Counted from the stretch's first letter, positions 3,878-17,186 are shown. The stretch: 64,000 nt of DNA from Saccharofermentanales bacterium (GCA_041655695.1 JBBAEW010000002.1:27927-91926), one strand, 5' to 3'. Notes: a model not told the origin generated them from the letters alone. Made by a program: numbers and translations.

Positions 3878-4976
3878 TCTGGTTTCCTCCTTTCGTCTTC
3901 GAGAGGGCGTAGAGGATGATGCCGTTCGAAACAATGGGCCGGACGACCTCCGACAGGCGGCTCCCCTGGGGAACCAGCCTCTGGATGACCGGCAGTGACG
4001 TGGTCAGGATACCCTGGAAGAGCAGGGTTCCGATGATGACATTGACGATGGTGGCCCGGCGGGTGGTCGCCCCTCCGATCAGGACAGCCGCCACGCAGGC
4101 AAAACCCATATAGAGGGGAGCCGCGTAGAGCTGGAGGAAGCCGTAGACCTGACCGTAGATGATGATGCCCACAGCCCCCAGGACAGTCGATAAAATCGTC
4201 CCCTGCAGGCGCTTGCTGTCGACTTTGATGGCGTTGGACCGTGTAAAGAGTTCATTCTCACCGGCAGCAGAGAGAGCGATGCCGCTCTTGCTGCGCAGGA
4301 AGAGCCAGACCAGGAAACAGACGAAGAGGAAGAGCAGGATGGTCCCGATGGGAATGGAAACACCCCCGATCCGAAAGGCCATCCACTTGAGGATGCCCGG
4401 CTGGTTGGCTGTCACGTCAGGATCGCTCAAAAGCCCCCCGTAGGTCCCCTCCAGGCTGATGGTATTGCGCATGCCCTCCCCGCCGTAGGGGAAGATCAGG
4501 GTGCCGGACTTGACCGGCAGGACCGCCCAGTAGATCTTGGAGAAGGCGACTGCGGAGAAACCCACATAGGTCGAAACAGTCATCTCCGATCCCTTGACCC
4601 GGTTGAGCAGGTGGCCATAGGCCCAGCCAAAGATCAGGGCCACCGGAATGGCGACCAGGAAGGCGATACCCAGTTCTGTCCAGGGCCTTGCGGGGCCTCC
4701 CATGCGGTAGGCCAGTTCAATGGAGGTGGTGGCGCCGATCAGGCCGGCGACAATCCCCAAAGAGACGCCGAAGTTGAGGCCGATGCCGCTCTGGACGCCC
4801 GGCACCATGGCCAGGACCAGAATACCGAAGAGAGCCCAGCGGCGGAGCACATCGCTGACGACATCCGTCAGCTTCAGGCCCAGCAGGGGCGAGGCTACCA
4901 CCAGCAGGACGAAGAAGAGCCCGATAATGACACGGGGCCATCCGACGCGCTGCATAAACAATCTCATGCGACTCAT
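3867..4976 (-). CDS. ABC transporter permease
   Basis: 369 aa multi-TM protein. ATGA overlap with the stop of the ATPase gene at 4973-4976. Confidence 0.8.
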   Translation of the reverse strand: MSRMRLFMQRVGWPRVIIGLFFVLLVVASPLLGLKLTDVVSDVLRRWALFGILVLAMVPGVQSGIGLNFGVSLGIVAGLIGATTSIELAYRMGGPARPWTELGIAFLVAIPVALIFGWAYGHLLNRVKGSEMTVSTYVGFSAVAFSKIYWAVLPVKSGTLIFPYGGEGMRNTISLEGTYGGLLSDPDVTANQPGILKWMAFRIGGVSIPIGTILLFLFVCFLVWLFLRSKSGIALSAAGENELFTRSNAIKVDSKRLQGTILSTVLGAVGIIIYGQVYGFLQLYAAPLYMGFACVAAVLIGGATTRRATIVNVIIGTLLFQGILTTSLPVIQRLVPQGSRLSEVVRPIVSNGIILYALSKTKGGNQIEK

Positions 4977-6583
4977 GCCTGACCTCCTTCCAGAGCCACG
5001 CTGTCAGACATACCGGACATGGCCAGCCCGAAGGCGACATCCGACGCGTCCGGAGGCAGAATCTGTTCGATCTTGCCTTCTGCGACAATGGCGATCCGGT
5101 CACAGACCGAACGCAGTTCCACCAGCTCGGAGCTGATCATGATGATGGTCATCCCCAGCTCCTCGTTGATCTTGACCAGATGTTCCAGGACCAGTTTCTT
5201 GGCCCCGATATCGATACCCCGCGTGGGTTCTGCCACGACCAGGATTTCAGGTTCCATGGAAAGGGCCCGCGCCAGACAGACCTTCTGCTGGTTTCCGCCT
5301 GACAGGCTGCCCGTCTTTTGCTGGGGGCCCGTACAGCGGATATCCAGGAGCTCGATCATGTCCAGGGTGTGTTTTTTTGCCTGCTTGCGGTTGAGGAGTT
5401 TGAAGGGCCCCAGCTTGCGTAAAAAACGGTTGTGAATCTGCATAGTCGAAAAGATGACATTGCGTTCAATTGATTCGTTGAGCAGAAGGCCCACACCCCG
5501 CCGATCCTCGGACACAAAAGCAACCCCCTTGAAAAGGGCGTCCCCCAGTTTATCCAGCTGGAGTTTCTCACCGAATACAAAGGCGTCGCCCTGGGCCGGG
5601 TAAAGACCCATGAGTCCGTTGATGACGCCGATTTTCCCTTGACCGGCCAGGCCGCCAAAGCCGAAAATCTCCCCCTTGTAGATGGAGACATCCATGCCCT
5701 TGACCTGTTCACCCGGCATGTCAACACTGAAATTCTCAAGCTCAAGGGCGGTGGTCTCCATATCGCAGACCCGGCAGGTATCGGAAAGCTCAACCAGACG
5801 TTCCACCTTGCGGCCGATCATCTTGCCGGCGATTTCCGTGACGGAGACATCCTCCGTCCTGGCCCGCTCAACCAGTTCCCCGTCACGCAGGATGGTCAGG
5901 CTGTCGGCGACGGCCTTGACCTCATCCAGACGGTGGGTGATGAAAATAATGGCGATGCCCTGGTCGGTGATCATCTTCATGATCTCCAGCAGGCGGTCGG
6001 CTTCCGTTTCCGCCAGGACGGCCGTCGGCTCATCGAAGACCAGAAGCTTGATGCCGGTCTTGTCGATTTCGCGGGCAATCTCGACGAATTGTTTGAAGCC
6101 GATGGGAAGCCCGGCCACCTTGACGTATTCCTCGATGTTGAGGCCGATCCTGGACAGGGCCTTCCTGGCATCGCGCCGCATGGCCTGTCTGTCCAGAATA
6201 TCCATAGCAGGACCAAAGATCCTTGAAAACAGGGTCGGCCGGCCAATCTCGCGCCCGACCTTGATATTCTCCGTAATGGTAAAATCCGGAATCAGCATGA
6301 ATTCCTGATGGACCATGCCGATGCCGTGTTCCATGGCCTGGTGAGGGTTGGCGATGGAGACTTTCTCGCCGGCGATTTCCACCTCACCCTTGAAACCGCC
6401 AGTAGTGTGGATGACCGGCATCCCAAACAAAATATTCATCAGGGTTGATTTGCCGGCCCCGTTCTCGCCAACCAAAGCGTGTATTTCACCCGGCTTGACG
6501 GTCAGGTCGACATTCTTCAATACCTGATTGCCAAAGTATTCCTTGCTTATCCCCTTCATGGATAAAATAGGTGGCCCGTCCAT
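4973..6583 (-). CDS. ABC transporter ATP-binding protein, tandem ATPase domains
   Basis: First Walker A is GENGAGKST. Two signature motifs (LSGGNQQKV) and two Walker B regions (LVFDEPT, LVVAEPTRGID). GGAGG lies before the ATG. Confidence 0.9.
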   Translation of the reverse strand: MDGPPILSMKGISKEYFGNQVLKNVDLTVKPGEIHALVGENGAGKSTLMNILFGMPVIHTTGGFKGEVEIAGEKVSIANPHQAMEHGIGMVHQEFMLIPDFTITENIKVGREIGRPTLFSRIFGPAMDILDRQAMRRDARKALSRIGLNIEEYVKVAGLPIGFKQFVEIAREIDKTGIKLLVFDEPTAVLAETEADRLLEIMKMITDQGIAIIFITHRLDEVKAVADSLTILRDGELVERARTEDVSVTEIAGKMIGRKVERLVELSDTCRVCDMETTALELENFSVDMPGEQVKGMDVSIYKGEIFGFGGLAGQGKIGVINGLMGLYPAQGDAFVFGEKLQLDKLGDALFKGVAFVSEDRRGVGLLLNESIERNVIFSTMQIHNRFLRKLGPFKLLNRKQAKKHTLDMIELLDIRCTGPQQKTGSLSGGNQQKVCLARALSMEPEILVVAEPTRGIDIGAKKLVLEHLVKINEELGMTIIMISSELVELRSVCDRIAIVAEGKIEQILPPDASDVAFGLAMSGMSDSVALEGGQA

Positions 6584-6659
6584 TCTTCCTCCCCTTCACG
6601 CCCGGACAGCCCGACGCCCGGCCAGCCGGGCGGTGCCTGTCTTGCGGGTCTTCTTTTTC

Positions 6660-6697
6660 AAAAAAGCGCACCGACTCCTTTGGGGGAGCCGGCGCGC
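6660..6697 (-). terminator. Intra-operon hairpin with T-run between the SBP and ATPase genes
   Basis: On the minus strand, a 13-position stem (11 pairs) GCGCGCCGGCTCC/GGAGTCGGTGCGC is followed by TTTTTT. Confidence 0.45.
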
Positions 6698-6741
6698 TCA
6701 CGCCTCAGACTAAACGCATGATGCGTGTTTACCCTGGTTTC

Positions 6742-7899
6742 TTACTCGATCGGCTTGCTGAAGTCGATGAAGGGAGCCAGGATCAGGTAGAAGTTACTCA
6801 GCGTCTTGTTCTCCTCGGTCACATAGTTGGAGAGCGTGATGGTTCCGGCCTTGTACTCGTCCGCAACCTTCTTGATGGCGCGGTCCAGGGCGGCCTTGTC
6901 GTGACGCTCTGTGAACTTGCCTTCGCAGAACTCGATGGCGTACTCAACACCGGCTTCCAGCATCAGCATGTTCATGGGGACTCCCCAGGTGGACATGCGG
7001 CTTTCCTGACCGGATTCCTTCAGTTTTTCCTGAATGGATTTGAGCATGAACTTAACGTCACCCTCGTGGCCTGTCACATCGATGTTGAGGGCCGCCGGGT
7101 AGGCGTGGTAGGGGCTGGGGCAGCACTGCTGCGGATAGATGCCCTTGCCTTTGATGACTTCGCGGATCAGGGGTTCCTGCAGGCCGCAGTTGGTCGAGAA
7201 GAAAGCCGTGTCGGGACCGTATTCAGCGATCTTTTTGGGCACATCTTCAACGATGAACTGCTGGGCTCCGGAGATGCCGGCGTCACCGGTCGGGTCGGGT
7301 GCTTCGACGTCGATGAATTCGATACCCAGCTCTTTGCAGGTCTCGATCATGATGGCGCGGCGGGTGGCAATGGTGGTGTAGCCCAGATGGCGCGGGAAGG
7401 AGTAGTGCAGGAAGCGGGTGGCTCCCATGCGGGCGGCTTCCGTAGGAATGGCGCTGCCCATGGAAATCTCGTCAACCAGGAGGTTGACATCGGCTTTGCC
7501 TGACATGACTTCCGGATCCTCGGCGACAACACCGGCGATGAAGAGCATGTCGGGACGTGTCTCGCGGACCTTGTCAATGGCCGCTGCGGCGCCCGGGACT
7601 GCCTGGACAAAGACAATGGCCTTGACCTTGTCGTCCGATGCCAGCTGGAGTACGCCCTGGATTACCTGCTCAACCTCTGAGGAGAAGTTGTCGGGATAGG
7701 TCGCGGTGACGATCATGTCACCGTAGCGGGCTTTCATCTTCTGAGCCGCCTGGTACTCTTCTTCTCCCTGTGAGACGGTGCCTGTGTAGAGCGCGATCTT
7801 GTAGTCGCCGCCTGTCGACGGTTTGGAACCGCGATCGCAGGCAACAACCGTGAGAATCATCATCACGGCGAGCACCGCCACCAGAATCTTCTTAATCAT
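6742..7899 (-). CDS. Lipoprotein substrate-binding protein of the ABC transporter (DUF3798-like, periplasmic-binding fold)
   Basis: ATG at 7899 with GGAGGAAACA upstream gives MIKKILVAVLAVMMILTVVAC (lipobox). The listed start at 7983 adds a non-signal extension. Family call is from memory of DUF3798 sequences. Confidence 0.7.
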   Translation of the reverse strand: MIKKILVAVLAVMMILTVVACDRGSKPSTGGDYKIALYTGTVSQGEEEYQAAQKMKARYGDMIVTATYPDNFSSEVEQVIQGVLQLASDDKVKAIVFVQAVPGAAAAIDKVRETRPDMLFIAGVVAEDPEVMSGKADVNLLVDEISMGSAIPTEAARMGATRFLHYSFPRHLGYTTIATRRAIMIETCKELGIEFIDVEAPDPTGDAGISGAQQFIVEDVPKKIAEYGPDTAFFSTNCGLQEPLIREVIKGKGIYPQQCCPSPYHAYPAALNIDVTGHEGDVKFMLKSIQEKLKESGQESRMSTWGVPMNMLMLEAGVEYAIEFCEGKFTERHDKAALDRAIKKVADEYKAGTITLSNYVTEENKTLSNFYLILAPFIDFSKPIE

Positions 7900-8028
7900 A
7901 TGTTTCCTCCAAATTGTTTTCAGTCCGGCTGCCCGGACTCCTGTCCCCCGCCGGACGACCGGCAGGAGCGATTTGCGTTTCACAAATCAACGCTTTTTCG
8001 ATCCCTTACTTATGAGATACGTAAGCCA

Positions 8029-8057
8029 ATCATAAATATACAGGTGGGCCTTGTCAA
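8029..8057 (-). promoter_or_regulatory. Sigma-A-like promoter of the ABC transporter operon
   Basis: Minus strand: TTGACA (8057-8052), 17 nt spacer, TATGAT (8034-8029). Confidence 0.5.
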
Positions 8058-8149
8058 GCTATTTATACGAATAATGTTAACAAATTATACATTATTACGC
8101 CATATTTTACTGGGGAAAAAGATGAGAAACAAGTTACATTTAGCTGGCA

Positions 8150-8190
8150 AGACCTTGAAACCAGAAGGTTTCAAGGTCTCTTTTCTTTGG
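8150..8190 (+). terminator. Orphan intrinsic terminator on the plus strand
   Basis: Perfect 13-bp stem AGACCTTGAAACC/GGTTTCAAGGTCT, 4-nt loop, then CTTTTCTTT. No plus-strand gene lies upstream. Confidence 0.5.
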
Positions 8191-8410
8191 ACAATTTTCG
8201 GCTCAGATAAAGAACCAGTTCTTTTAATTTTCGGCCTAACCAGGCGAAGAGTTCAATAATGAGTCACATATGGCGTCCTTTCTTTTCCTTAATTTCTTTA
8301 AGTATACACATCCGTGCAAGCAAATGCAGGCGGCCGGGGCAGCAAGGGAGCTTCCCACTTGTCGTACAATGAGGAAGGCTTTGCCCATTGACCACGAAAG
8401 GCCGGTATGA

Positions 8411-8905
8411 ATGATGAGACGAAAAGACAGACAGGCGGATGAAAACTTTGCCCTGGAGATTGTAGACAGCTGCTCCTACGCGACAGTCAGCATGGTCATG
8501 CCCGATGGCCGCCCTTATGGGATTCCCCTCTCCATTGTCAGGATGGATGGCTTCCTTTACTTCCACTGCGCCCCCCGGGGCAAGAAGCTGGACGCCCTTC
8601 TGGCCTGCCCTCAGGTGTCCGTCGCCTGTGTCGGCCGTGTCCGGCCGCTCAAGAATGAGTTCACAACCGAGTATGAATCGGCCATTGTGGACGGGACAGC
8701 CGTGCGGGTCACTGACCACGACGAAAAAGTCAGGGCTCTTCGAGCCATCTGCCTCCGCTATACGCCCGACCATATGGATGCCTTCGAGGACGCCGTCCGC
8801 GAGAGCCTCCACCGGACCGACCTCTGGCGGATTGAAATCCAGGCCATAACCGGCAAGCGCAAGCTCTATGACAGCGAGGGCAGGGAGATCAAGTCCGGCC
8901 TCTGA
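8411..8905 (+). CDS. Pyridoxamine 5'-phosphate oxidase family protein (Nim-like flavin-binding split barrel)
   Basis: 164 aa. N-terminus MRRKDRQ...E.....L....Y..V.....DG.PY..P and overall size are typical of PNPOx/NimA-like proteins. Confidence 0.65.
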   Translation: MMRRKDRQADENFALEIVDSCSYATVSMVMPDGRPYGIPLSIVRMDGFLYFHCAPRGKKLDALLACPQVSVACVGRVRPLKNEFTTEYESAIVDGTAVRVTDHDEKVRALRAICLRYTPDHMDAFEDAVRESLHRTDLWRIEIQAITGKRKLYDSEGREIKSGL

Positions 8906-8918
8906 TTTCTGACGGCTC

Positions 8919-8966
8919 TTGCGCCGAACATATGTGCGTGATAGACTGAACGCGAACGATTGTTCT
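8919..8966 (+). promoter_or_regulatory. SOS promoter with two LexA (Cheo-type) boxes
   Basis: TTGCGC (8919-8924), 17 nt spacer, TAGACT (8942-8947). Box 1 CGAACATATGTGCG (8925-8938) fills the spacer; box 2 CGAACGATTGTTCT (8953-8966) lies just downstream. Each has one mismatch to CGAAC-N4-GTTCG. Confidence 0.6.
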
Positions 8967-8979
8967 GCCGAGGTAGCCT

Positions 8980-9243
8980 ATGGAACGCACATACGTCACA
9001 GTCGTGGCCCGGATCACCCCTCAGGGTGATCTTTTCCCACTCATACTCCGTTTGGAGGACGGATCGGAATTCACGGTCGACCGGCGCCTGCAGGCGCCGC
9101 AGAAGAACAAAGCCAAGGACGGTACCTCCGCCTGGCGCTTTTCCTGCCTGATCGACCGGAAGCCCGTGACCCTCTTTTACGATGCCGGCACCCACCGCTG
9201 GTCAATCGAATCCAGCCTGCCCCGGGGAGGCCAGGGAAAATGA
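8980..9243 (+). CDS. Small protein (87 aa), paralogue of the 10481-10795 product; candidate polymerase accessory factor
   Basis: GAGGT SD 6 nt upstream. Stop overlaps the dinB start (ATGA at 9240-9243). Aligns with the downstream small ORF. Confidence 0.6.
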   Translation: MERTYVTVVARITPQGDLFPLILRLEDGSEFTVDRRLQAPQKNKAKDGTSAWRFSCLIDRKPVTLFYDAGTHRWSIESSLPRGGQGK

Positions 9244-10484
9244 GTGACCGCGTCGTCCTTCACGTGGACCAGAACGCTTTCTACGCCAGCGTGGAAATGC
9301 TCCGGCGGCCGTCACTGAAGACTGTCCCCTGCGCCGTGGCGGGTGACCCCGTCAATCGCCACGGAATCGTCCTGGCCAAAAATCAGCTGGCCAAGACGGC
9401 GGGCATCAAGACCGGGGAGACGGTCTGGCAAGCCAAGCAAAAATGCCCCGGCCTGGTCTTGATCCCTCCCGATTACAAGAGTTACCTCTATTACAGCCGG
9501 GTGGCCCGGGAGATCTACCGGGAGTATACGGACCGCGTTGAAGCCTTCGGGATCGACGAGTGCTGGCTGGACCTGACCGGCTGCCCCGACAGGGACGGAC
9601 CGGCCGTGGCCGAGGCCCTGCGCAGGCGCATGAAGGCCGAGCTGGGCCTGACCGTCAGCGTGGGTGTCAGCTGGAACAAGATCTACGCCAAGCTGGGCAG
9701 CGACCTGAAAAAGCCGGACGCCACTACTGTCATCAGCCGGGCAAGCTACCGGGAACAGGTCTATCCCCTGCCGGCAGGCAATCTGCTCTACGTAGGCCGG
9801 GCGACCGAGCGCAAGCTTGGCCGCTTCGGAATCAGGACCATCGGCCAGATGGTAGACGCGGGACCCGACTTCCTGCAGGCCCAGTTCGGGATCGTCGGTC
9901 TCAGTCTCTTCGCCTTCGCCGGCGGCCTGGACCAGACCCCCGTCGCCCTGTCCGGCCGGGAGGTCCCCATCAAGTCCGTGGGCAATTCCCTGACCACCCG
10001 GCGCGACCTCTACACGGAGCAGGACATCAAGGCCGTCACCTATATGCTGACCGAATCCGTAGCCGGCAGACTCCGGGATGCCGGCATGGCCGCCCGGACC
10101 GTTCAGGTCTCCCTGCGCGACTACGCCCTCTACAATTTCGAACGACAGGCCCCCCTCCCCCGGCCCACCCTTCTTTGCTCGGAGATCGCGCCGGAGGCCT
10201 TCAAGCTGATCATGGCCCATTTCCAGCCGGGCCAGTGGATCCGCAGCCTGGGAGTCCGCGCCTGCAACCTGATCCCCCAGTCCAGACTCAACCAGGAATC
10301 CTTCCTGCCGGATGACAGGCGGCGGCAGGCAGTCTTCCGCCTGGAAGATACCATCGACTCTCTCCGCGGCCGCTACGGCGGCCTCTCCGTCCGCCGGGGT
10401 ATCTCTCTGGTCGATCGCTCACTGACCGAACACGATATCAAGAGCGAGAATGTCATCCACCCGGTGGGCCTCTCCGGACCATGA
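9240..10484 (+). CDS. dinB: Y-family DNA polymerase (Pol IV / DinB-like)
   Basis: N-terminus VLHVDQNAFYASVE, then FGIDECWLDLTG, SVGVSWNKIYAKLGSDLKKPD; 414 aa. Confidence 0.9.
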   Translation: MSDRVVLHVDQNAFYASVEMLRRPSLKTVPCAVAGDPVNRHGIVLAKNQLAKTAGIKTGETVWQAKQKCPGLVLIPPDYKSYLYYSRVAREIYREYTDRVEAFGIDECWLDLTGCPDRDGPAVAEALRRRMKAELGLTVSVGVSWNKIYAKLGSDLKKPDATTVISRASYREQVYPLPAGNLLYVGRATERKLGRFGIRTIGQMVDAGPDFLQAQFGIVGLSLFAFAGGLDQTPVALSGREVPIKSVGNSLTTRRDLYTEQDIKAVTYMLTESVAGRLRDAGMAARTVQVSLRDYALYNFERQAPLPRPTLLCSEIAPEAFKLIMAHFQPGQWIRSLGVRACNLIPQSRLNQESFLPDDRRRQAVFRLEDTIDSLRGRYGGLSVRRGISLVDRSLTEHDIKSENVIHPVGLSGP

Positions 10485-10795
10485 GCCGGCCTGTCCCTGT
10501 CACCGTCATCCTGGAGATGCGGGCTTCCGGCACCCGGCATCCGCTTGAGATCGTGTGGGAGGACGGCCGGCGCTATGAGATCACCCGTTCCCTCTACCTG
10601 GGCCGCAAGGCCGCCCGCTCGGCCGGATCCGGCGAGTGCTGGCTCTGCCTGATCCAGGGCCGGCACGTCCCCCTCTATTACTCTCCCCTGACCGGTTGCT
10701 GGTGGATGGACGGCAAGGGCCAGGCGGAGGCCCCTCCAGCCCCGGAAGCCTACCGGCCCGTCAAGGACCGGGGACACAAAGGACCAGGCTCGTGA
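10481..10795 (+). CDS. Small protein (104 aa), paralogue of the 8980-9243 product
   Basis: ATGA overlap with the dinB stop (10481-10484). Shares G-x3-PL, EDG, R-x-L, CLI, V-x-L-x-Y and W positions with the upstream small ORF. Confidence 0.6.
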   Translation: MSRPVPVTVILEMRASGTRHPLEIVWEDGRRYEITRSLYLGRKAARSAGSGECWLCLIQGRHVPLYYSPLTGCWWMDGKGQAEAPPAPEAYRPVKDRGHKGPGS

Positions 10796-10833
10796 GATAA
10801 TGAAAGCATCTCACAGGGGGAGGCTTTGGCCCC

Positions 10834-11901
10834 ATGCTCAAAAACAAGACTTTTCGAAATTACAAGGAACAGATTGAATTCATGCAGAGCCGCGGTATCC
10901 GGGTCCCCGACCAGGAAGCGGCCATTGAGGCCCTCAGCACCTTCTCCTATTACTCCCTGGTCAATCTCAACAAGCACCTCTATGGAGGCCTGGAAAAAAG
11001 AGACTTCGAGGGCAGCCCCTCCATCCTGGACCTCCAGCTGGCCCACATGCTTAACATGAATTTCTACCACATCCTGCTCAAGGGCATCCTCTATGTCGAG
11101 GCCGCCTTCAAGACCAAGCTGGCCTATCTGATTTCTCGCGAATTTGGAACCGAAGCCCACGATGATCTGGACCGGAAGGGCAACAACTATTTCCACCAGG
11201 CTTATTACGATGCCGCCAACCCCTCTGTCCCGGGGACCTTGCGGACTCTTCGGAACAAACTCCGCTTCCTTCTCTCCGATACCAAGGCCAATTCCTACTC
11301 CCACAAATTCCTGGCAGGCAACCGCCAGCTGCCCCCCTGGATGTTCGTCCACGATATCGAATTCGGCCTGGCCGTCCTTTGGTACAACATCCTGCAGCAG
11401 GCCGACCGGGCGGAAGTGCGCGACCGGATGATGTGGGGGGAGACCGGCCAGCCGCCGGCCGGCCTGCAGGCCCAGGCGGCCGCGGATTTCTTCGAGGCGG
11501 CCCTGAAGATCCTGCGCGAATACCGCAACACCATCGCCCACGGAGAGCGTGTCTTCCCTGTTGAAATGACAGCGGTTCTGCCCTGGCAGCCCCTCAAGGC
11601 CGTCCTGCCTGAGGGCATCCTGTCCCTGGAGGAGTACCAGTCGGGCTTCGGACAGAAGGACACCTTCGCCTGCCTGCTGGCCGTGGTCTATTTCATCCAC
11701 GACCCGGTTCTCATGGTCAGTTTTTTAAGGGAGATCAGGGCCCAGATCGAATTCGCCCAGCAGATCCGCCAGGCCATGGCACCGGGCGCCCTGGATATTT
11801 TCCAGATTCTGGGGATTCCCCCCTTCACCATGGAACGCCTGATCCGGCTCAGCCACCTGCGGTTCGGCTCCCTGACAGAGACCTTCCTGGACCGGACCTG
11901 A
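10834..11901 (+). CDS. Abi_2 family (AbiD/AbiF-like) abortive-infection protein, HEPN superfamily
   Basis: N-terminal YKEQIEFMQSRGI...A...L....YY.L and central PPWMFVHDIEFG are typical of Abi_2. R-x4-H motif in YRNTIAHGERV. Confidence 0.75.
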   Translation: MLKNKTFRNYKEQIEFMQSRGIRVPDQEAAIEALSTFSYYSLVNLNKHLYGGLEKRDFEGSPSILDLQLAHMLNMNFYHILLKGILYVEAAFKTKLAYLISREFGTEAHDDLDRKGNNYFHQAYYDAANPSVPGTLRTLRNKLRFLLSDTKANSYSHKFLAGNRQLPPWMFVHDIEFGLAVLWYNILQQADRAEVRDRMMWGETGQPPAGLQAQAAADFFEAALKILREYRNTIAHGERVFPVEMTAVLPWQPLKAVLPEGILSLEEYQSGFGQKDTFACLLAVVYFIHDPVLMVSFLREIRAQIEFAQQIRQAMAPGALDIFQILGIPPFTMERLIRLSHLRFGSLTETFLDRT

Positions 11902-11911
11902 AACGTTCGGA

Positions 11912-12676
11912 TCAGCCCAGGGCGATATCCAGAACCATCATGATGATGAAGCCGGTGATCATGGCGTAGCTGGCGATCCGCTCATTGCCGCTGCTATGGG
12001 TTTCGGGGATGACCTCATCCACGATGACGAAAAGCATGGCTCCGGCGGCCAGGGCCAGGATGAAGGAGAGGGCCGGCTTGAAGAGACGGACCAGGCCAAA
12101 GCCCAGGAAGGCCATGGCCGGCTCGATGACACCTGTGACCAGGGCGATCCAGAAGGCCATTTTTGTGCTGTATTTCTCACGCATGAGGGCGAAGGCAACC
12201 GCAAGCCCTTCGGGCATGTTCTGAAGACCGATTCCGATGGCGATGGGGATGCCGTGGGCCGGGTTGTTGGAACCGAAGGCGACGCCGACGGCCAGGCCTT
12301 CGGGGATATTGTGGATGGCGATGGCAATGACAAAGAGCCAGATCTTTTTCAGGGAATCGCTGGCCACACCCTCGTGGTGCTTGTTGATCAGGTGCTCATG
12401 GGGCGCGAAGTAGTCGATGATATCAATCAGGAAGGCTCCTGCGGCAATTCCCGCAGCGGTGACCAGAACCGCGGTCAGATGGCCGCCTCCGTGCTCGATG
12501 CTGGGGAGAATCAGGGAAAAACAGGTAGCGGCCAGCATGACGCCCGCCGCGAATCCCAGCATGACATCCAGCCATTTGCGTGAGACATCCCGCGCGAAGA
12601 GAGCGGGGATGGCCCCGATCCCTGTCATGATGCCCGGAATAATCAAGCCCGCGGCGATGACCCAGTTATTTGCCAT
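11912..12676 (-). CDS. ZIP family divalent-metal transporter (ZupT-like)
   Basis: Multi-TM protein with the HNIPEGLAVGVAF and QNMPEGLAVA signature helices. Confidence 0.85.
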   Translation of the reverse strand: MANNWVIAAGLIIPGIMTGIGAIPALFARDVSRKWLDVMLGFAAGVMLAATCFSLILPSIEHGGGHLTAVLVTAAGIAAGAFLIDIIDYFAPHEHLINKHHEGVASDSLKKIWLFVIAIAIHNIPEGLAVGVAFGSNNPAHGIPIAIGIGLQNMPEGLAVAFALMREKYSTKMAFWIALVTGVIEPAMAFLGFGLVRLFKPALSFILALAAGAMLFVIVDEVIPETHSSGNERIASYAMITGFIIMMVLDIALG

Positions 12677-12704
12677 AGGAAACCTCTTTCAGCTTTTGCC
12701 CATT

Positions 12705-13415
12705 TTACCATTGATCCATGGCCTCCCCATAGGCCCTGTAGCGGTCCCTGCCCGTGGCCGCCACCAGGCCGACAGGCCGGAGCCCTGTCTGCAGCAGTGG
12801 CTTGGCCGCCTCCTTCATGGTCGCGCCGCTGGTCAGGATATCGTCGACCAGAAGAACTGTCCGCCCCCTCAATTCGGCCGGAAGCCGGGATCCGGAGCTC
12901 AGGCGGAAGGCCCCCTCCAGATGCTCCAGGCGTTCCTTGAGCGAGGTGGTTTCCGACTGGCGCCGGGTATCGCGCCAGCGGACCAGGAGCTTGTCAAGGG
13001 AGGGGATGGAAAGCTCTTCGGACAGGCCTTCCGCCAGCAGAGCGGCCTGGTTGTATCCCCGCCTTCTGCGCCGGTTCTCGTGAAGGGGCAGGGGGATGAT
13101 GGCATCGGCTTCCAAGCCCTGGCAAAGAACGGTCCGGGCCATGAGGGGAGCCAGGGCCATAGCCCGGTCTGTCCTGCCGGCAAATTTGATGGAGACCAGG
13201 ATTTCCGTCAGGGGTTCCCGGTAGAAAAAAGTGGCAAAGAGAGGGAAGGGGCCGTCCCAGCCAACCGCCTCCCTGTCCATGCGAAAGGGCAGACGGGAGA
13301 GGCAAAGGCGGCAGACAGAGGGTGAAGGCAGGGGCGGATGAACCGCCTGGTCACAGATGGAGCAGAAGGGAACGTAGTAGGCGCGCCGGATGACCCGGCC
13401 CAGCCAGCCGCCCAC
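12705..13415 (-). CDS. comFC: ComF family protein (phosphoribosyltransferase-like, ComFC)
   Basis: N-terminal Cys pairs (CSICD...CRLC) and C-terminal PRTase loop VLLVDDILTSGAT. Lies directly downstream of recD2. Confidence 0.8.
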   Translation of the reverse strand: MGGWLGRVIRRAYYVPFCSICDQAVHPPLPSPSVCRLCLSRLPFRMDREAVGWDGPFPLFATFFYREPLTEILVSIKFAGRTDRAMALAPLMARTVLCQGLEADAIIPLPLHENRRRRRGYNQAALLAEGLSEELSIPSLDKLLVRWRDTRRQSETTSLKERLEHLEGAFRLSSGSRLPAELRGRTVLLVDDILTSGATMKEAAKPLLQTGLRPVGLVAATGRDRYRAYGEAMDQW

Positions 13416-17055: not shown

Positions 17056-17186
17056 TAAAAAGGCCTCCTGAGGAGGCCGACTGAACCTCATCTCTCAGAC
17101 ACTGCTGTCTGCAGGAATTAGCACCGCCGCATGACCGCGGTTGCCGGGTTTCACAGGGCCAGTCCCTCCACCTCTCAAGATAAGAA
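17056..17186 (-). promoter_or_regulatory. SAM-I (S-box) riboswitch with intrinsic terminator in the metK leader
   Basis: Minus strand reads TTCTTATCTTGAGAGGTGGAGGGACTGGCCCTGTGAAACCCGGCAACC...GGTGCTAATTCCTGCAG...GAGAGATGAG. The hairpin GGCCTCC-TCA-GGAGGCC plus TTTTT follows. Confidence 0.85.

Follow-up and report, generated by a model that had tools for sequence, protein, structure and literature searches.

A vertically inherited Abi_2 gene with a promoter-like element of its own beside a LexA-box polymerase cassette

A 64,000-nucleotide (nt) stretch of DNA from a Saccharofermentanales bacterium (GCA_041655695.1, JBBAEW010000002.1:27927-91926; hereafter the window) carries an open reading frame (ORF) of the Abi_2 group of HEPN-family proteins, here called Abi, directly behind an SOS-type cassette of three genes: a small ORF (sORF1), a Y-family DNA polymerase and a second small ORF (sORF2). 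A first-pass annotation of the sequence had read Abi as appended to this cassette, an effector placed under SOS control. Comparison with about 25 related genomes leads us to favour, with moderate confidence, a different arrangement, in which Abi is a transcription unit of its own, a vertically inherited chromosomal gene that stands beside rather than inside the LexA-box operon and receives SOS input by incidental read-through. A conserved promoter-like box travels with Abi, and LexA boxes are never found at Abi; for these reasons the view of Abi as a built-in SOS effector is unsupported.

Relatives were collected by a GTDB scan (one genome per species, with the orthologue alignment as query) that gave 21 loci, all in metagenome-assembled genomes (MAGs) that bear the labels Mageeibacillus, Clostridiaceae or Saccharofermentanales (Mageeibacillus belongs to Oscillospiraceae in the NCBI taxonomy); 20 species-level loci are informative for the side upstream of Abi. 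Exact-protein look-ups added loci in which the cassette is inverted (L022-L025, L110-L112 and L116-L118). Gene neighbourhoods were read by tblastn with the window proteins, and two protein alignments were used: A1, of 22 Abi orthologues, and A2, of the 30 nearest non-orthologous (outgroup) Abi_2 proteins.

Upstream of Abi, only one non-coding feature is strongly conserved throughout the clade: an extended -10-like box, TGAGATAAT in the window, where its TG (10793-10794) belongs to the TGA stop codon of sORF2 and GATAAT follows. The first-pass annotation had described the gap before Abi as holding only a hairpin and a Shine-Dalgarno sequence, and so overlooked it. In the window and 19 related loci, TG-n-GA(T/C)AAT precedes the Abi ATG by 23-33 nt, whatever lies upstream, with 2 bits of information at its fixed columns against 0.1-1.0 in the flanks. 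The box is present where the gap to sORF2 is 71-208 nt (L005, L010, L011 and L013), it accompanies Abi in loci with an inverted cassette (L012, L014, L015, L016, L022, L110 and L116), and it is retained where two unrelated genes intervene or where the cassette is absent upstream (L021). Its conservation is not caused by the stop codon that it overlaps, since in L004 the stop is mutated to TGC, sORF2 runs on and the box is kept. Given that the inverted and separated loci have no same-strand gene upstream of Abi, a promoter must lie in that intergenic region. Extended -10 promoters of the Gram-positive type have the form TRTG-n-TATAAT, with the TRTG at -16, and in sequence as well as in spacing to the ATG the box is consistent with an extended -10 sigma-A promoter. 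We infer that the box serves as the Abi promoter, with a predicted transcription start near 10808. The deepest lineage has TTTGCTACAAT before Abi, followed by a leader of about 185 nt (L017 8540-8733, L018 5340-5535, L026 ~7930-8123); the leader, which follows TGCTACAAT, is conserved among these three close sequences, but it matches no Rfam family, and its folding is no better than that of its shuffles (z = +0.41).

Two tandem LexA boxes of the Cheo type precede sORF1 and are the sole matches with at most one mismatch to CGAAC-N4-GTTCG in the 64 kb; this number of matches is not beyond chance for 64 kb, and their weight rests on position and conservation. A LexA box stands upstream of sORF1 in each of the 18 related loci whose sequence covers this stretch, and the boxes are likewise tandem in L001-L003 and L011. 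Because the boxes are kept in this position, the cassette is very probably LexA-controlled, as the first-pass annotation had proposed. Boxes with at most one mismatch occur only upstream of sORF1 or, in L113 and L114, upstream of the polymerase. In no locus does a LexA box come closer than about 100 nt to the -10-like box of Abi, and in the two loci where cassette and Abi are adjacent and divergent the distance between the two elements is 107 nt (L015) and 336 nt (L016). A separate LexA box for Abi was found neither in the window nor in its relatives.

The gene order shared by the relatives is ABC transporter, PNPOx, sORF1, polymerase, sORF2, Abi, ZIP, ComF-like, RecD2 and MetK. Considered as a member of the LexA operon, Abi lies on the same strand with no intervening terminator and is colinear with the cassette in 15 of the 20 species-level loci; it is divergent from the cassette in four and lacks it upstream in one. 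Among the four, the cassette is inverted and directly divergent from Abi in L015 and L016, and inverted with an aldo-keto reductase and a kinase-like gene between the two in L012 and L014; in the remaining locus, L021, type III CRISPR-like genes and no cassette are found within 10 kb upstream of Abi. All observed breakpoints fall outside sORF1-polymerase-sORF2, and several fall between the cassette and Abi. On a neighbour-joining tree built from Abi and the polymerase, the gap between sORF2 and Abi measures 243-327 nt in the outgroup lineage, and the sister clade has either the inversion or a gap of 104-208 nt; a gap of 29-38 nt (71 in L005) is confined to the window's clade, which indicates that the tight apposition is derived.

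Cassette and Abi also occur apart. L113-L115 carry polymerase-sORF2 pairs without sORF1 and without Abi within 1.4-6 kb (sORF2 56-62% and polymerase 71% identical to those of the window), and in this Abi-less lineage a AGAACAnATGTTCT box stands 30 nt before the polymerase. Of 80 metagenomic loci that carry the closest Abi_2 genes outside the orthologue group (644 kb, flanks of up to 6 kb on each side), none has a Y-family polymerase (tblastn, E <= 1e-4) and none a perfect LexA box. The first-pass annotation had left it undecided whether the linkage recurs in other genomes and had proposed a search for co-occurrence with Abi_2 homologues. It does recur, in 15 of 20 species-level loci, but the conserved neighbourhood points to descent within one clade of Clostridia: the outgroup score is 0 of 80, and Abi-less cassettes exist.

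The distances between proteins agree with this history. Pairwise distances of Abi correlate with those of RecD2 (r = 0.92), ComF (0.91), ZIP (0.86), DinB (0.82) and MetK (0.80), and its mean divergence of 0.33 equals that of RecD2 and is lower than that of ComF; the congruence with its neighbours indicates that Abi is vertically inherited under purifying selection. In an exhaustive phmmer search the orthologue group collapses to one 50% cluster, the next relatives are at most 34% identical, and no close phage or plasmid copies were found, phage and plasmid relatives being at most 27% identical. The neighbourhood is syntenic and chromosomal rather than patchy, mobile or a defence island. A recent origin from an island, phage or plasmid, which the first-pass annotation had offered as an acquired accessory island, is thus rejected on the unremarkable GC content of the locus, the lack of close phage or plasmid relatives and a divergence congruent with that of housekeeping neighbours.

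The identity of the protein itself was borne out. The ORF matches Pfam Abi_2 (PF07751) over profile positions 2-183 of 184 with 69.8 bits (cut-off 25.6; 5e-19) and the PADLOC AbiD model at 2e-27, and its orthologues form 25 protein clusters at 54-98% identity. An AlphaFold2 model computed from 22 orthologues is all-helical (predicted local distance difference test score, pLDDT, 86.4; predicted template-modelling score, pTM, 0.86), and in a Foldseek search of the PDB its sole significant match is PbAbiF (8vz6_A; E 2.5e-6, template-modelling scores 0.58/0.67), the next match having an E of 0.5. The R-x4-H motif noted in the first-pass annotation, YRNTIAHGE, has R231, N232, I234, A235, H236 and G237 invariant in the 22 orthologues, and its R, N and H are invariant also in the 30 nearest non-orthologous relatives. 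R231 and H236 match R202 and H207 of AbiFCd in a direct pairwise alignment and R210 and H215 of PbAbiF by way of outgroup profile A2, which did reach PbAbiF; the A1 profile found nothing among the PDB sequences. In AbiFCd these two residues are needed for toxicity, and mutating both inactivates PbAbiF (PMC12373285); AbiD and AbiF were classed as HEPN proteins by Anantharaman et al. 2013 (PMC3710099). Since profile, fold and residue alignments agree, membership of the Abi_2 (AbiD/AbiF) family with a catalytic R-x4-H motif is confirmed. By analogy, the mechanism is best taken to be that of a dimeric HEPN RNase.

Characterised systems of the AbiF group are two-component, with an upstream non-coding RNA (ncRNA) that carries the abiF motif (RF03085) and that binds and blocks the HEPN site (PMC12373285, PMC13064643). 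Rfam gives no RF03085 match at E <= 10 in window positions 8000-13000 or in the L017 gap, and none at gathering score in nine related loci or 14 outgroup loci; in the positive control it finds RF03085 75 nt upstream of phiC2 abiF. The 38-nt gap is also too small for a 36-37-nt abiF motif together with a promoter and a Shine-Dalgarno sequence. An abiF antitoxin RNA was accordingly rejected for the window, its relatives and the outgroups, and both this subfamily and the relatives nearest to it appear to consist of 'solo' Abi_2 proteins. sORF2 was considered as a partner or antitoxin of Abi and rejected likewise, as it always moves with the polymerase and not with Abi, and is parted from the polymerase in no locus. 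The label 'abortive infection' is uncertain for this ORF, because no antitoxin RNA accompanies it, it behaves as a core gene and it has no close phage or plasmid copies.

The short gap between sORF2 and Abi was described correctly in several respects: it measures 38 nt on the same strand, has no terminator-like site and no T-run longer than 3, and holds the Shine-Dalgarno sequence GGGGGAGG, a G-rich version of which is found in the same place in relatives. The 6-bp hairpin to which the first-pass annotation drew attention does exist, but its stability does not exceed that of shuffled sequence (z = -0.46; of 200 shuffles, 58 fold equally well) and its arms are not kept in relatives, and we rejected it as a terminator or regulator on these two grounds. 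The longer sORF2-Abi gaps of L010, L011 and L013 showed no terminator-like site either, nor did the + strand of the L017 gap. Read-through from the SOS promoter into Abi is therefore possible wherever the genes are colinear, and the co-transcription suggested earlier is physically possible, but Abi carries a conserved promoter-like box of its own. Between sORF2 and the Abi -10-like box, L010 has a perfect 11-bp GC palindrome (9920-9955; CCCGCGCGTCG ... CGACGCGCGGG) with no U-tract on either strand. At the other end of the gene, a ZIP-family transporter gene converges on Abi with 10 nt between the stop codons (window 11899-11914) and no terminator at the junction in the window, so that the 3' ends of the two transcripts must overlap in antisense. 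The Abi and ZIP ORFs themselves share 8-9 nt in L008 and L110.

Both junctions within the cassette are 4-nt overlaps (ATGA), which indicates translational coupling of sORF1, polymerase and sORF2. The polymerase matches the Pfam domains IMS (3e-40), IMS_C (2e-19) and IMS_HHH_1, and the NCBIfam DNA polymerase IV models with scores under their cut-offs. It is bracketed by a pair of small paralogues: sORF1 and sORF2 are about 31% identical by tblastn cross-match and 32% in alignment, and sORF2 alone has a conserved extra tail, P-x-P-E-x-Y-R-R-V-K-D-R-D-Y-K-P. Their family, of 21 clusters, is confined to the clade and is matched by nothing in Pfam or NCBIfam; as modelled, sORF2 is a 6-stranded beta protein, with no fold match in the PDB. 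Identification of either as YolD was rejected, with no PF08863 match even at E <= 10 and no PDB fold match, and of the features of a YolD plus Y-family polymerase cassette the locus shows the polymerase domains and the LexA boxes without a PF08863 partner. The two small proteins may be analogues of the YolD/UmuD' accessory subunits. The features of the locus are collected in Table 1.

Table 1. Positions of the LexA boxes, genes and signals in the window, and of the two-gene insert in four related loci.
Feature	Locus	Coordinates	Strand	Remarks
LexA (Cheo-type) box 1	window	8925..8938		CGAACATATGTGCG; upstream of sORF1
LexA (Cheo-type) box 2	window	8953..8966		CGAACGATTGTTCT; 14 nt before sORF1 start
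sORF1	window	8980..9243	+	87 amino acids; first cassette gene; stop overlaps polymerase start
Y-family (DinB/PolY-type) DNA polymerase	window	9240..10484	+	414 amino acids
sORF2	window	10481..10795	+	104 amino acids; last cassette gene; start overlaps polymerase stop
Hairpin of the first-pass annotation	window	10789..10818	+	core GTGAGAT 10792-10798 / ATCTCAC 10808-10814; judged chance
Extended -10-like element	window	10793..10801	+	TGAGATAAT; sORF2 stop codon and first 6 gap bases
Shine-Dalgarno sequence	window	10816..10823	+	GGGGGAGG; 10 nt before Abi ATG
Abi_2 (AbiD/AbiF-group) HEPN-family ORF	window	10834..11901	+	355 amino acids
HEPN catalytic motif R231-N-T-I-A-H236	window	11524..11541	+	R231 = 11524-11526; H236 = 11539-11541
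Two-gene insert	L012	7606-9304
Two-gene insert	L014	2133-3849
Two-gene insert	L022	6064-7759
Two-gene insert	L110	6111-7806

Several further observations concern the related loci. The two insert genes encode an aldo-keto-reductase/ferredoxin-domain protein and a 195-residue P-loop kinase-like protein; they are absent from the inverted loci L015, L016 and L116, and their pattern on the tree requires two gains or two losses. In L021 a 595-residue Cas10-like and an 801-residue RAMP-like protein are encoded directly upstream of Abi (4950-9179, minus strand), both being candidate assignments made by eye from translations; the contig is binned as Bacteroidales, and its Abi 5' region is nearly identical to that of L014 and L015. 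In L113 and L114 a variant palindrome, AGAACA(G/C)ATGTTCT (4726-4739 in each), lies just after TGCTACCAT and before the polymerase. One MAG, L020, has PNPOx, polymerase and Abi each split into several tblastn segments (7008-11044), for which assembly frameshifts are more likely than pseudogenes. A SAM (S-adenosylmethionine) riboswitch (RF00162, 81 bits; 17085-17186, minus strand) upstream of metK is kept in related loci and is ordinary.

How Abi is expressed, and to what end, can be read in other ways. It could be the last gene of the LexA operon, expressed mainly after DNA damage and coupling the SOS signal, which is also the signal for prophage induction, to an abortive-infection or suicide RNase. 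The same strand, the terminator-less 38-nt gap and the LexA boxes upstream of the cassette speak for this, as do the colinearity in 15 of 20 loci and in the deepest lineage despite its altered flanks, the want of a terminator-like site in the longer gaps too, and a survey in which genes of 'replication, recombination and repair' showed enrichment beside abi_2 genes outside prophages (PMC12373285). We nevertheless consider it improbable: the conserved box follows Abi into the rearranged loci and has no LexA box at it, a whole subclade whose cassette is inverted or two genes away keeps an intact and conserved Abi, Abi-less cassettes exist, no Y-family polymerase accompanies the outgroup proteins and the short gap is derived. 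A reading in which the TGAGA(T/C)AAT box is an operator or RNA element, such as a repressor site or leader, and colinear Abi genes are transcribed only from upstream would draw on the lack of a convincing -35 element, the failure of a consensus scan to call a promoter, and the position of the box, which in the window and some relatives forms the left half of an inverted repeat (TGAG...CTCA). We find it very doubtful, given that in the inverted and separated loci the box is the sole conserved element and no same-strand gene lies upstream, that its sequence and ATG distance fit an extended -10, and that the inverted repeat is neither conserved nor significant.

A different question is whether the protein still serves defence. 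It may be a domesticated HEPN protein, a clade-specific housekeeping or stress RNase or RNA-binding protein encoded by a core gene, whose adjacency to the cassette is historical. Consistent with this are the presence, in every species sampled from the clade, of one syntenic orthologue that diverges as RecD2 does and less than ComF, the absence of mobile-element or defence-island context in most loci, the negative search for an antitoxin RNA motif with its positive control, a promoter that looks constitutive, and the presence of housekeeping enzymes among other HEPN families (PMC3710099). Set against them are the catalytic R-N-x3-H and the whole fold, which are those of toxic AbiF proteins, the orthologue in L021 that adjoins type III CRISPR-like genes, and the lack of positive evidence for a housekeeping substrate; we regard this reading as unlikely, though deserving of some weight. 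A combined version, which we think slightly more doubtful than SOS control proper, would have a domesticated, antitoxin-less AbiF-like RNase, encoded by a core chromosomal gene that has neighboured the SOS polymerase operon since the clade arose, fused to the operon in the window's subclade, where damage-induced read-through slows growth or aborts induced prophages. The arrangement that we favour, an independent Abi unit with incidental read-through, has its own difficulties. The box lacks a good -35 and a two-hexamer sigma-70 scan does not call a promoter at it, and it could instead be a regulator-binding site; the sORF1-polymerase-sORF2-Abi block is intact in the deepest lineage (L017, L018 and L026), where both flanks have changed, and Abi and the cassette lie within 3 kb of each other in 19 of 20 species-level loci, from which it follows that some selective or regulatory tie between them is possible; and a defence gene would not typically be kept as one syntenic orthologue throughout a clade.

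Under independent transcription, Abi would be read from its own extended -10 about 30 nt before its start, with a strong Shine-Dalgarno sequence following. The intergenic region would have shrunk in the window's subclade until the sORF2 stop codon came to overlap the Abi -10 box, and damage-induced transcripts of the cassette probably continue into Abi and supplement its basal expression, a dual input. SOS input to Abi would then be a lineage-specific by-product and not a conserved regulatory design. The product is predicted, by homology, to be a homodimeric HEPN RNase with R231 and H236 in its active site; it may be held inactive until a trigger, most likely phage infection, and then bring about growth arrest.

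Much of this falls within what is known already: the protein family has been described, and the locus is explained mostly by an ordinary promoter and synteny by descent. It is of modest interest that a vertically inherited solo AbiF-like gene has its putative promoter fused to the end of an SOS operon. If the read-through is real, the relatives provide a natural series (short-gap, long-gap, inverted and Abi-less) for asking whether it matters at all that a HEPN toxin is coupled to SOS. The more solid point is an Abi_2/AbiF protein that behaves as a core gene without an abiF antitoxin RNA; not every Abi_2 match, we would caution, is a mobile abortive-infection system, and the question is raised of how solo HEPN proteins are kept harmless.

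Among known systems, the cassette resembles the LexA-controlled YolD plus Y-family polymerase operons yqjX-yqjW and yolD-uvrX of Bacillus subtilis (PMC6511836) in having a gene for a small beta-rich protein before a Y-family polymerase, and LexA boxes. It differs in that sORF1 and sORF2 have no match to YolD (PF08863) and in the presence of a paralogous small gene on each side of the polymerase; an Abi_2 neighbour is undescribed for the B. subtilis operons, as neither 'Abi' nor 'HEPN' occurs in PMC6511836. AbiF is not mentioned in PMC12165695. The lactococcal AbiD, AbiD1 and AbiF (PMC13064643, PMC3710099) share with Abi the Pfam and PADLOC family and the HEPN classification. Their genes are carried on plasmids, occur sporadically and belong to two-component systems in which an upstream RNA region is conserved, whereas the upstream region here has 38 nt, in which only the -10-like box and the Shine-Dalgarno sequence are conserved, and the ORF is without close plasmid or phage relatives. 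PbAbiF, a Prevotellaceae AbiF dimer solved in complex with its ncRNA (PDB 8vz6), is 15% identical to our ORF, which is about 55 residues longer and for which no such RNA partner was detected; the fold matches, and R210/H215 align to RNxxAH. AbiFCd/RCd22 of the Clostridioides difficile phi027 and phiC2 prophages (PMC12373285) is part of a prophage lysis module and has an antitoxin ncRNA (RF03085) in front of it, in contrast to the chromosomal, syntenic and vertically inherited ORF described here, which lacks RF03085. At only 22% identity, the two are nonetheless both Abi_2 proteins from Clostridia encoded by a single protein gene, and their R-N-x3-H motifs correspond residue for residue, R231/H236 to R202/H207.

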